A stretch of 61,333 nt of DNA, filler included, from Bipalium vagum (Eukaryota), in the NCBI GenBank assembly GCA_037834085.1. It is 3 parts of 3 records of this genome, joined end to end, with 100 filler letters (N's around TTAATTAATTAA, not from the genome) between each part and the next. Parts side by side here need not be neighbours in the genome. Positions count along the whole stretch, not along the records: positions 1 to 21,468 come from JBBMKC010236910.1; 2 more parts are not named here. The stretch is one strand, 5' to 3'. Every line of letters starts with the position of its first letter. Positions within the stretch are counted from its first letter, which is position 1. The notes beneath the pieces are model-generated. The model saw nothing but the letters and a program-made list of their open reading frames with translations, was not told where the DNA came from and made no database searches. The translations under genes were made by a program, and so were the position numbers. Of this stretch, positions 5,396 to 20,210 are shown piece after piece.

Positions 5396-5471
5396 CTACC
5401 AATCTAAAGAATATTTATCATTCATTCTTTCCTGGATAGAGTCCTGTTCAACTTTGAGTTTTTCTACAGAC
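5396..5471 (-). CDS. Candidate downstream exon of the TCF/LEF gene: (R)SVEKLKVEQDSIQERMNDKYSLDW*
   Basis: Acceptor aatttttag at 5472; open in the phase-2 entry frame. It either ends at TAG (5396-5398) or splices at tg|gtagaa (exon end 5400). Phase fits the donor at 19414. Confidence 0.5.
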
Positions 5472-5559
5472 CTAAAAATTTATTAATATTGTTAGTACTT
5501 GTGCTTTAATTCACCCCAATTTACCTCTATCAAACTCTTTACAATTTTGCTTTTAAGAC

Positions 5560-6200
5560 ACGAATTTGTGATTGTTTAAATTAAGAATGTTTTACATTTA
5601 TCTCCATTGGCAGGGTACAAAGAAATCTGTTTGTGATTCGTTCAAGAACGAGGGATACTTCACAATGCGCGACTCTGTAGAAATAGTAACCGATGTACGT
5701 TTTGCGGTGCATTAAAGTACAAGTACCAAATATTTTTATCTTACGAAAAAGATGTTATACATTTAGTCTCGCACATTTTATTTGATTAGAATTTTGTATA
5801 TGAAATGGTTTTGACTTACTTACCTAAAAAAGTAAAAGAAAGCAAAAGGTAAAATCAAAGAATAATTGGAAGCATGACAATGGAAATATAAGGATACGCA
5901 CTTTTTCTTGTTCTGCGTTTCTTTCATCATAGAATGGCATCCAAGAGCTTACGTAAACCTAATTTTATTGATCTCACCAATAACGTCAAATGTCTCATAT
6001 TTGTCTTGAAGTCTCTGTTAATTTAGTCTAGCAAATATTTTTATTGACATAATCAAGTGTAAGTGTAAGGATTGATTACCTGTAATGGTTCGTAAGGTTC
6101 GTGAGAGACACTGACCGTATCATAAACGCTTTAAAGCTTCAATATTCAACATACATTTCTTTTTCGGATACACTTTCAAGTAATCCTTAAAAGTTGTTAT
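5560..6200 (+). mobile_element. Degenerate non-LTR retrotransposon C-terminus (restriction-like endonuclease type)
   Basis: Broken frames resemble the Cys knuckle, YLPKKVKESK and RKPNFIDLTNNVKCLIFV (cf. RPD..IID endonuclease motif). Confidence 0.4.
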
Positions 6201-6374
6201 CTCAGAATTACAATGGCCTAAGACATTTAATGTTTAATAATAATTATAATTATGATGATTATTTTAATATCAAAAGGAAAATAATGTGTTGGATGAAGAA
6301 AAAACAAATTAAAAACAGATGGAAAAATCAATGAGAAGAATCCTGAACCTTTAGAATGCCTTTGATAGCCAAAA

Positions 6375-7514
6375 ATTATCCTCTGGAATAGGTGCTCCAA
6401 AATTTCGCTGGATAAATCAAATATTCGAGCAATTATTTATTACGAATGGAAAAATACCAAAAGCACAAATGAAACTGTCTCAAAACTTAACGAGGTGCTT
6501 GGTGAAGGATCAATGCAACTGCGAACAGTGCAAAATTGGTTCAAAAAATTCAATAGTAGTGATTTTTCATTGGAAGACAAAGAGAGGTCTGGAAGTCCAA
6601 AAGATTTTGAGGATTATCAAATTATAGACCTTCTTGAACAAGACAGATCAATTAGTGCTATTTTTCTGAGTTAAATATAAGCGATATAGCCACAAGAAAC
6701 CGACTAAGAGCATTAGGATTCACTTGTAAACTCGAAAAATGGATTACCCGCCAACTAGCTAAGAAAAACAAGTTGAATCGCATTGAAATTTGTTCAAGAC
6801 TTCTCGAAAGAAACCGAAATGATCCTTTTCTCGATCGGATAATCACTTGCGATGAAAAGTGGATCTATCATGACAACATAACCAGACGAAGATCGTGGTC
6901 GTTGAAAGGAGAGCCTCCGCAAAAATTAAAAAACGAACCTTACACGAAATAAGGTTCTTTTATACATTTGATGGGATTCTCGTGGAATTATTTTTCAGGA
7001 GTTTCTCAAATCCGGGGAAACCATTAATTCTGATGTATATTGCGACATGCTAAGAAGAGTTCATGCCATTATGAAGGAAAACCGGAGCAGTTTGATAAAC
7101 CGAAAACAAGTAATTTTCCACCAAGATAATGCAAAGCCTCACAAATCAATGAAGATATTGAAGGTTATTCAGGAATTGAACTGGGCTCTAATGGAACATC
7201 CGTCATATAGTCCCAATATCGCTCCATCCGATTTTTTGTTCCGGGTATTACAGAATCATTTGATAGGTAAAAATTTTAAGAGTTCCGGAGGTATAAAGAA
7301 TGAAGTTCTTTCTTTCTTTCATTCAAAAGATCGAGATTTCTTTAATACTGGGATCAACAAACTTCTAAATAGATAGGAGGCAGTAATAGAAAAAGATAGG
7401 GAATATCTGGATGATAAATTGTTTAATAATGTCTTATGATTAATGAATTAAATTTAACTTCAGTCTTAGTTTAGTTTTTAATTAAAAAACGAAAAAACTT
7501 AGTTCGTTACCTGA
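6375..7514 (+). mobile_element. mariner element, 5'-truncated; same family as 40592-41877
   Basis: NWFKKFNSSDF, RIITCDEKW, FHQDNAKPH and HPSYSPNIAPSD motifs. 3' TIR cttagttcgttacctga followed by TA. Confidence 0.92.
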
Positions 7515-7519
7515 TATTT

Positions 7520-8050
7520 ATTTACAACAATAACACTACTGTTCAGAATAAATTCCATCACCTTCAATGATTTTATGCCACCTATCTACTAGAATTCTTA
7601 TCTGGTCAAAGTACCATTTTCTTTTTTTGATTCGAAAAACTCTTTATGTCACCTCAATTTAAGCTCCAGATTCAAATCGGCGTCCTCTGAGGAAGTGTTG
7701 CATAATGTGGTGCAGCAACAGGACTGTAGACAGGATGAGGTAAGATCTTAACTCCTTCCGGGTTTTCAAATTTTTCTTGGAATATCCGAACAGTGCGTGG
7801 CTTGGCATTTTCCTGGTGAAATAATGCTCGCTTTTGACGAAGGAGGACAGAATAGTCTAACTTAAGTGCATCATAAACACGATCAAGCTGCTGGAGATAA
7901 AGTTCTGCATTTATGGCTTTATAAATTAGAACCAGTACATAATGAAGAATTACTTCAAAATTCCACAGAGGAAGAACTTTCTGCAAACCTGGATGGAGGT
8001 GTGATTGAAGACAGATATTTTCCTCTTGGAACAGACATAACACGAATAAT
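7520..8050 (-). mobile_element. mariner fragment (C-terminal half)
   Basis: ORF 7672-8043: YLQQLDRV..LFHQENAKPRT..ILPHPVYSP. Confidence 0.8.
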
Positions 8051-8159
8051 GTTTCATTTTAAATATATAATAACGCGTTTTTATCTCTGTTTCAATATAT
8101 ACATAGTTTAATCTGAAAATTATTTTTTCATGTATTTTAGAACGATAAATAAAAGATGG

Positions 8160-18345: not shown

Positions 18346-18799
18346 GCGTTCACTGAAGGTAAAAGGGGATAGAAAAAAATGAAAGATAACAAGAATCAGA
18401 GCATATCATAATTGTGAAACAGAAATGAGAGGTTTCATGGATTCCATGTTATCATTTTTCTATTATTTTAAACATTTTAATCCACGAAATTGGGGCTAAA
18501 TTCAAGTACTAACAATCTTGCGTAACCAATAGGAACAAAAGGTAAGATTAAAATATTAAAAATAATTTTTTGAAATATATCTTAGATTTGGCCAAAGAAA
18601 CAATTTTATCAATCAGTAAATGAATAAAATATATAGAGTTTACACTTCAAGTTCAAACCTTTAAAAATTCTTGATTTGTTAAAATGTTTTAAATGGGTTA
18701 TATTATTCTTTTATTTGTGTGAATATTTAAAGTATATAATCATTAAAAAGTAAAATCTAATACCTCTAACTTTTCAAAGTAATTTTATAAAATAGATGC

Positions 18800-19335
18800 T
18801 AAATATGGCAAATATGAGAACCGAGTTTGTGATGACTTATCATAGCCAATTATAATGACGGTAGCTCATTAAAACTGTCACATTTGCCGTACCCAAGTCA
18901 ATAGCATTCTGAAAACTTATAAAAAGATGATTATGTAGAAAAATTGCCAAGAGGAGGCTAAAGGTTTGCCAAAACTAATGCCGAGATTAAACAATTTATT
19001 AGGGACAAGACTGATAAGAAATAAGACATCAGCCTGAAAAGTTTAAGCAAATTAGTATTTGAGAAATCCCAGGTATCTTTGTAACATACAACTATTGATA
19101 TTGGCTTAGTGGATTTCATTAATCTTTGAAAAGAATAAAGATACTCGCAATTCGCAGTATTTCAATAGAAATAATGCAACAGAGATTAAACTATACTTCC
19201 GATTTCCAAGACCTGTTGGCGAACAAAAGTAAATGCAACATATTTTTTATTGACGATGTAGGCTTCAATTTAATTATATTTGGAAATATGGTAGAACATG
19301 TATTGTACAAGCTCCAAAATAAGATAACGTAACAA
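18800..19335 (+). mobile_element. IS630/Tc1-like transposase remnant
   Basis: EKLPRGG..KQFIRD and IFFIDDVGFNL (cf. IFIDExGFN). Confidence 0.5.
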
Positions 19336-19414
19336 TTTCAGAAGACGATTGTTTCTTTAGAAATATGTTAAAAGAAATGTGTTGCTTTTAATAAATAGTA
19401 TTCAACATCTTTAC

Positions 19415-19469
19415 CTTTTTGATTTTACCTGCCCTAATTTTTTAAAGGTTTGAAATTGAAGTTTAAATC
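19415..19469 (-). CDS. Candidate TCF exon 3: (G)FKLQFQTFKKLGQ[VKSK]
   Basis: Acceptor tgtacag, phase-1 entry. Two donors: cag|gtaaaa (exon end 19429, phase 0) and aag|gtaaag (exon end 19415, phase 2). Confidence 0.45.
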
Positions 19470-19993
19470 CTGTACATTGGTTGTATTACTTCAGTTATTA
19501 TTACTTTCGAAAAGAATTTAACATATTAACATTGTAAAATTATATTGTAATAATAAAAATAAAGATAAACGATATAAATAAAAGTTTAAAATATAAATGT
19601 TTCATATATGGAAAATATCTAAAGAATTCACAAGTAATAAATAATCATTTTCATTTAATCATATTCTTATAAATAAATAAAAAAATATATATTATATAAA
19701 TATTCAAATATAATTAAATCAAATTTTTATATGATTGATTACGAAAATATAATAATATAATCATAAAAATTTTCGTTCTCATATTAATTAAACGCATAAA
19801 TTGAAAGAATAATAAAAAAATATTTTTTATAATAAAAGGAATTGTTTAACGAAATATTTAACATCACTTTCTTTCTATTTCTCAACGATCAATAATCGTA
19901 CATTTCGGAAATGGATAATCGAGGAAATTTATCAATCATATTCAGAAATTAATTCAAGTAATTTGTAATTTTATTCTAATAATTCATAATTAC

Positions 19994-20036
19994 CATTTTT
20001 ATTTTCTATTATATCCATAATATCTGTTTTAAAGAA
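19994..20036 (-). CDS. TCF/LEF exon 2: FFKTDIMDIIENKN
   Basis: Follows a 48-nt GT..AG intron (20037-20084; acceptor gttttcag); donor g|gtaatt; in frame with exon 1. Confidence 0.6.
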
Positions 20037-20084
20037 CTGAAAACGTAAAAATAAATTTCTCTAAACATTATCATTTGTCAATAC

Positions 20085-20210
20085 TTTTTCTTCTACTTCA
20101 TTTACTAAATCAGATTTTTCTGTATTAAGTATTTCTATACTTTCATTATCACCTTCGTCCTGATAGATCTTAACTTCGTCCTCCAAAATAAAATTATTAA
20201 AGTAAGACAT
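20085..20210 (-). CDS. TCF: TCF/LEF (pangolin) transcription factor exon 1, beta-catenin-binding domain
   Basis: MSYFNNFILEDEVKIYQDEGDNESIEILNTEKSDLVNEVEEK aligns with both halves of the CTNNB1-binding domain: DELISFKDEG / DEVKVFKDEG and LADVKSSLVNESE. ATG at 20210; donor aaa|gtattg. Confidence 0.8.

Follow-up and report, generated by a model that had tools for sequence, protein, structure and literature searches.

The 5' end of a probable TCF/LEF gene at a contig end in Bipalium vagum

Here we report the analysis of a window of 61,333 nucleotides (the whole stretch of DNA considered) from Bipalium vagum (GenBank assembly GCA_037834085.1), whose first piece carries on its minus strand a divergent first coding exon that we assign, by its sequence features, to the TCF/LEF family (Table 1). 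A sequence-only reading had joined this exon to three others further downstream and had proposed the encoded 99-aa protein, which would bind beta-catenin and has no HMG box, as a natural beta-catenin sponge. Our analysis indicates that the locus most likely represents the 5' part of an otherwise ordinary TCF gene, which the assembly truncates, with the HMG-box exons likely located on another contig. The window is made up of three pieces separated by N44-TTAATTAATTAA-N44 spacers (21469-21568 and 44977-45076), which appear to be artificial and to hold stops in all frames; the order and orientation of the pieces across the two spacers are unreliable.

Table 1. Features of the window, with the TCF-bearing piece first
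Feature	Position	Strand	Details
TCF-bearing piece (JBBMKC010236910.1)	1-21468		Right end is the spacer 21469-21568, 1.26 kb upstream of the TCF ATG
(AAT)n microsatellite	1-63	.	Perfect repeat at left end of window
TCF/LEF exon 1	20085-20210	-	ATG and beta-catenin-binding domain; phase-0 donor
Probable mini-intron	20037-20084	-	48 nt, gtattg ... ttttcag; in-frame stop inside, so that retention gives 49 aa
Probable exon 2	19994-20036	-	43 nt, phase 0 to 1; acceptor 4.9, donor 2.9
Exon 3 of the sequence-only reading	19415-19469	-	Acceptor 0.2, coding score -7.1; unsupported phase bridge
Alternative exon 3 candidate	12912-12985	-	74 nt, phase 1 to 0; ttttcag acceptor, gtaagc donor, GC 0.43
Exon 4 candidate, as internal exon	5400-5471	-	72 nt, phase 2 to 2; acceptor 6.2
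Mariner-type element, two copies	6375-7524, 40582-41723		87% identical
Degenerate tRNA-like stretch	about 14755-14820	-	
Exon-like stretch, middle piece	about 31730-31829	-	tttattacag acceptor, gtgagt donor; spotted by eye
Three PDZ-domain exons	33278-33410, 37606-37751, 41967-42135	+	Pfam PDZ on the middle one
Exons of a further gene	46724-46912, 47164-47208, from 47252	+	Mini-intron of about 43 nt
HSP70-like ORF	57662-59464	+	601 codons uninterrupted; Pfam E 3e-61

The TCF/LEF first exon

Exon 1 encodes an extended strand (D-E-V-K-I-Y-Q-D-E-G) and a helix (K-S-D-L-V-N-E), and an in-frame stop adjoins its ATG on the 5' side. The motif published for the catenin-binding strand of TCF/LEF proteins, D-x-aliphatic-aliphatic-x-aromatic-x(2-7)-E (PMC12825228), is matched by D-E-V-K-I-Y-Q-D-E except for the K at the second aliphatic position, a residue that is also present in full-length named TCFs and, by construction of the scan described below, in all 115 TCF-like loci listed.

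Exon 1 searched against Pfam, PF08347 included, gave nothing at E ≤ 1, and none of the five candidates scored from the protein collection was found at E ≤ 10. The sole match among the 50% representatives (P0002), a repetitive protein of 1458 aa unrelated to TCF, was rejected. Because direct peptide searches yielded no TCF match, reference TCF first exons were fetched by scanning metagenome loci with a degenerate DNA pattern for the TCF decamer. The scan found at least 118 loci; judged by translation, 115 of the matches listed are first exons or cDNAs of animal TCFs, and three are unrelated long ORFs. Three of the fetched cDNAs contain the Pfam HMG_box about 210-370 aa after the decamer, and CTNNB1_binding was matched in all eight controls, seven of them at E 1.5e-3 or better and the eighth, the HMG-bearing true TCF L056, at only E 0.58 on PF08347. 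The fetched loci are redundant, with 53 distinct sequences among the matches listed.

A profile of these 53 first exons had a single match in the window, with E 2.6e-10 at 20210-20064, while the next-best piece reached 5.2 bits; the test is partly circular in that its loci had been chosen by the decamer. The intron position and the C-terminal helix provide independent support, as neither was used in locus selection. Among the matches listed, 107 genomic loci (the 115 minus six cDNAs and two loci that end too early) have their exon 1 end 30-35 codons after the Asp, with a phase-0 GT directly at the exon end in 105 cases and one codon later in the other two; in the window, the GT comes after 32 codons. 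The helix reads K-S-D-L-V-N-E-V-E in the window and K-S-S-L-V-N-E-S-E in human TCF4 (1jpw), with seven of nine residues identical and outside the selection motif. When the window sequence was included in the profile, a search of the PDB returned TCF/LEF chains only (6 sequences). The TCF/LEF identity that the sequence-only reading had given to this exon is thus borne out by the profile, the intron position and the helix match.

Invertebrate TCF/pangolin genes (such as Platynereis TCF/LEF P0029, Owenia P0027, Lineus P0122 and the pangolin first exons of ants and termites) share with exon 1 the decamer, its spacing, the phase-0 intron at the exon end and the helix E-K-S-x-L-[VI]. Unlike them, the window sequence has a diverged and shorter stretch of 10 N-terminal residues, Q for K in the decamer and a probable first intron of 48 nt, and a middle or HMG exon was not found in the window. 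Identity to other animal TCFs ranges from 28 to 51%, and no flatworm-named protein was present among the 120 matches listed for the exon-1 profile. An AG before the D codon (20180) was considered as an acceptor and is not favoured, as it scores 2.7 with G at -3 and the N-N-F upstream of it aligns with D-D-F of TCFs.

That the motif match arose by chance in a stretch not derived from a TCF gene would agree with the lack of a direct match for exon 1 alone in Pfam, the PDB and the protein searches, but it is exceedingly improbable: spacing, helix and intron position are all TCF-like, and the decamer pattern, which was written after the sequence had been seen, occurred in none of 150 simulated windows. 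On these sequence features, exon 1 is assigned to the TCF/LEF family as a divergent first coding exon.

Downstream exon candidates

Splice sites were scored with a hand-set model that was checked on only six acceptors and five donors of other genes in the window, the PDZ exons serving as splice-site checks. The codon table behind the coding scores was derived from the HSP70-like ORF together with four or five of the check exons. The four exons of the sequence-only reading do join in phase to an ORF of 300 nt (99 aa plus stop), with AG/GT at every junction.

Exon 2 is probably beyond chance, given the 48-nt intron, the good acceptor and its phases 0 to 1. Donors of the form gtatt- and a mini-intron of about 43 nt are also seen in other genes of the window, and the phase pattern with a terminal Gly codon is the one that read-through tails suggest for exon 2 of insects (6/7). 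Its sequence showed no similarity to other TCFs.

The next member of the chain (19415-19469) ranks sixth of the seven phase-1-to-2 candidates upstream of 5471, and its sole effect is a phase shift, in the absence of which exon 4 stops after one codon (58 aa). It is an arbitrary phase bridge and is not beyond chance. When thresholds were set to the weakest signals of the proposed chain, 32 three-exon and 348 four-exon forms passed; with so many four-exon chains at equal thresholds, the complete chain does not exceed chance expectation. The 99-aa form probably reflects a manual choice of exons.

An alternative exon 3 at 12912-12985 has stronger signals than 19415-19469 and ranks fourth among 92 internal candidates on the minus strand. 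It contains the only open-frame TTTYAG...GTRAG acceptor on the minus strand between 19990 and 100 (the plus-strand control also has one), and its phases match those of insect exon 3 as inferred from tails (5/8). Its membership in the TCF gene is unproven. The candidate lies in a low-copy block (12500-13000) that is richer in GC than its surroundings (0.32-0.43 vs about 0.25); the remainder of this block may have a regulatory role for the TCF gene.

Exon 4 as an internal exon (5400-5471) has the highest score of the same 92 candidates (7.7). It lies in a single-copy contig from the sequencing run X1 (4198-6403; depth 19.8) without any differences. The donor TTG/GTAGAA that the sequence-only reading had noted after 5400 is present and scores -1.45, which is similar to the exon-1 donor (-1.5), and the stop of exon 4 lies inside its GT; a G precedes just 184 of the 1547 stop triplets on this strand (12%). 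Because the stop overlaps a GT donor that scores like that of exon 1, exon 4 is more likely to be internal than terminal. The simpler alternative already considered with the sponge, namely that the gene continues to the left through this weak donor, is the better reading. Whether exon 4 is beyond chance is uncertain, and 5400-5471 is unproven because plus-strand controls (156 candidates, up to 11.0) score higher. A resemblance of L-K-V-E in exon 4 to K-Q-E motifs (SUMO motifs) located about 30-65 aa before the HMG box of four TCFs was set aside as too short to count.

The HMG box, the contig end and neighbouring sequences

Both the TCF-bearing contig and an independent assembly of run X1 break off at the same (AAT)n repeat. 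Run X1 contains 0.98 of the sampled words (DNA contigs only) and may derive from the source sample, and the comparison with its contigs covered positions 100-13600 of the window. One X1 contig is identical over 100-2375 and continues for 47 letters before it stops within the repeat, so that position 1 of the window is likely an assembly break. Other loci point to long introns in TCF genes: a later TCF exon was not detected (E < 0.05; some queries may have been too distant) in any of the 32 further genomic TCF loci for which 1.5-9.9 kb of downstream sequence was available, none of the 10 with more than 6 kb gave an HMG match, and the exons of a neighbouring gene, which we take to be GRIP-like, are about 4 kb apart. 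The HMG motif was present in 4 of the 120 relatives listed for the exon-1 profile, in a search in which short proteins rank first. With a contig end and long TCF introns accounting for the missing exons, the absence of an HMG box from the window is unsurprising and, like the in-phase junctions, does not speak for a microprotein.

Splicing would lead from exon 1 across the 48-nt intron to exon 2 and then over long introns filled with mariner elements, with 12985-12912 and 5471-5400 as possible internal exons, and the gene would run past the microsatellite at position 1 to HMG-box exons beyond the break. As its main product, the gene would encode an ordinary TCF with DNA-binding activity, and the N-terminal domain of this protein is predicted to recruit beta-catenin. 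The Asp/Glu strand would occupy the armadillo groove in the manner seen in TCF complexes of known structure, and the HMG box encoded beyond the break would provide DNA binding. The motif and the contacts of the strand in the groove are described in PMC12825228, and the combination of catenin-binding strand and helix in PMC8651982. The mariner-type element of Table 1 reached a depth near 16,000 in X1, compared to 20 in single-copy DNA, and the introns hold many other broken mariner/Tc1 remnants.

Several observations weigh against this reading. As a lone peptide (35-49 aa), exon 1 had no TCF match in Pfam, the PDB, two protein searches or the Atlas, four other lone TCF first exons did match PF08347, and the part of the profile that follows the decamer scores exon 1 at only 5.1 bits (rank 4 of 2722). 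The splice-site model was set by hand; intron 1 spans several kb in other animals, vs 48 nt here; and the weak donor at 5400 has an AATAAA next to it (5390), a hexamer that occurs here once per 285 nt. The continuation of the gene is itself inferred because its HMG exon was not seen: in agreement with the sequence-only reading, neither a regular expression, nor tblastn with three HMG-bearing TCF cDNAs, nor a profile detected an HMG box in the window, where the best match to a profile of the HMG box and tail, out of 4066 six-frame pieces, reached 6.4 bits with E 2.5. In a spike test of this search, 39 of 42 pieces of 20 aa with 20% added changes were recovered, vs 9 of 48 pieces of 12 aa with 35% changes, so that a tiny divergent HMG exon could escape detection. 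The proline-rich, Groucho-binding middle exon, which contains P-P-P-A-H-M/T-G in all full-length TCFs compared, was likewise not found by tblastn in 1-20084 (none better than E 1.2); it may sit beyond the break or have diverged.

The same absences would also fit a partial TCF duplicate that consists of 5' exons only, either as a decaying pseudogene or as a dedicated paralogue that only binds catenin. Domain losses are described for duplicated flatworm TCFs: of three planarian TCFs, TCF-2 has all domains, TCF-3 is without Groucho sites, and TCF-1 has lost the catenin-binding domain (Su et al. 2017, PMC5643146), and five planarian TCFs, two of them with the catenin-binding domain, are cited in PMC8651982. 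A partial duplicate would mirror TCF-1, and both the divergence of exon 1 from other animal TCFs and the lack of middle and HMG exons in 20 kb agree with it. We consider it decidedly unlikely, as exon 1 shows no sign of decay in its start, motif spacing or donor, and as the contig end and the long introns account for the absences without any duplication. Under the preferred reading, in which an ordinary gene is cut short, the locus may be likened to TCF-2 and TCF-3 as described in that paper: duplicated flatworm TCFs of this sort could plausibly have a divergent first exon and no Groucho region that can be recognised.

Other sequences in the window include the three PDZ-domain exons of the presumably GRIP-like gene, an exon-like stretch on the opposite strand of the same piece, and exons of a further gene for which no Pfam or usable Atlas match was obtained. 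The HSP70-like ORF is strongly diverged, with one match at E ≤ 1e-20 (28% identical) among 7994 scored candidates. Rfam gave no match on 1-21468, ARAGORN called nothing in the window, and the degenerate tRNA-like stretch was called by neither.

Short TCF forms and their significance

TCF proteins that lack the HMG box and sequester beta-catenin are a known mechanism in mammals. Isoforms of human TCF7L2 that end at a poly(A) site in intron 4 keep the catenin-binding domain, lose the HMG box and reduce TOPflash activity unless Asp16 is mutated (Locke et al. 2011, PMC3210366); mouse TCF4N is described likewise, citing Kennell 2003 (PMC7140685). The sponge proposal is therefore less novel than it implied. 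The 99-aa product would resemble these forms in domain content and in inhibiting a TCF reporter by sequestering beta-catenin, but they are backed by 3' RACE, western blots and reporter assays, whereas the form in the window is predicted from DNA and would depend on a last exon of its own at a distance of 14 kb downstream.

With this precedent in human TCF7L2 and TCF4N, a full TCF gene that also yields a short, HMG-less, beta-catenin-sequestering isoform, either through polyadenylation within an intron or by use of a different last exon, has to be weighed. Depending on the exons used, the product would have 49, 58, 63, 77, 88 or 99 aa and would retain the whole catenin-binding domain in any case. 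Exon 4 has a good acceptor, and AATAAA is found just after its stop as well as at 19975 in intron 2. Nevertheless, such an isoform is unlikely, as no single form stands out among the 32 three-exon and 348 four-exon forms that pass equal thresholds, exon 3 is poor, and AATAAA is at background density; the exact 99-aa chain, one option among these, is very improbable.

Many public insect "pangolin-like" models, P0039, P0051, P0085, P0094, P0113, P0117 and P0118 among them, consist of the catenin-binding domain and unrelated tails. Models with PF08347 only (for example P0039, P0051, P0085, P0094 and P0117) have 87-172 aa and no HMG box, and resemble the proposed form in that the first two or three exons are followed by an unconserved tail. 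Unlike the proposed form, they are products of annotation pipelines. In 17 named insect models, the tails are unrelated (0 of 136 pairs at E < 0.01), begin at exon ends and are mostly read-through of the GT, which indicates that split or read-through TCF models often arise from long introns. Most of the insect models are probably of this kind, although some real short isoforms are possible. A narrow literature search of titles and opening abstracts on TCF isoforms and flatworm TCFs gave no HMG-less invertebrate TCF.

The proposal of a natural 99-aa beta-catenin sponge is not supported, since its exon 3 is an arbitrary bridge and the contig end and long introns account for the lack of HMG exons. 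That a paralogue restricted to catenin binding, or a short isoform that ends at 5396 and is subject to regulation, acts as such a sponge is unlikely. If true, the TCF7L2 forms without an HMG box known from mammals would have an equivalent in an invertebrate, which, provided that the animal is a planarian, would also be the complement of TCF-1.

On the best reading, this locus adds to the known TCF genes a further one, marked by its 5' end, which is of little consequence in itself, and illustrates how contig ends and long introns can give rise to false models of TCFs without an HMG box. A genuine short form would provide an invertebrate with a built-in Wnt brake like those demonstrated in human and mouse, and RNAi could then be used to probe it in an animal group whose head-tail polarity is set by Wnt.

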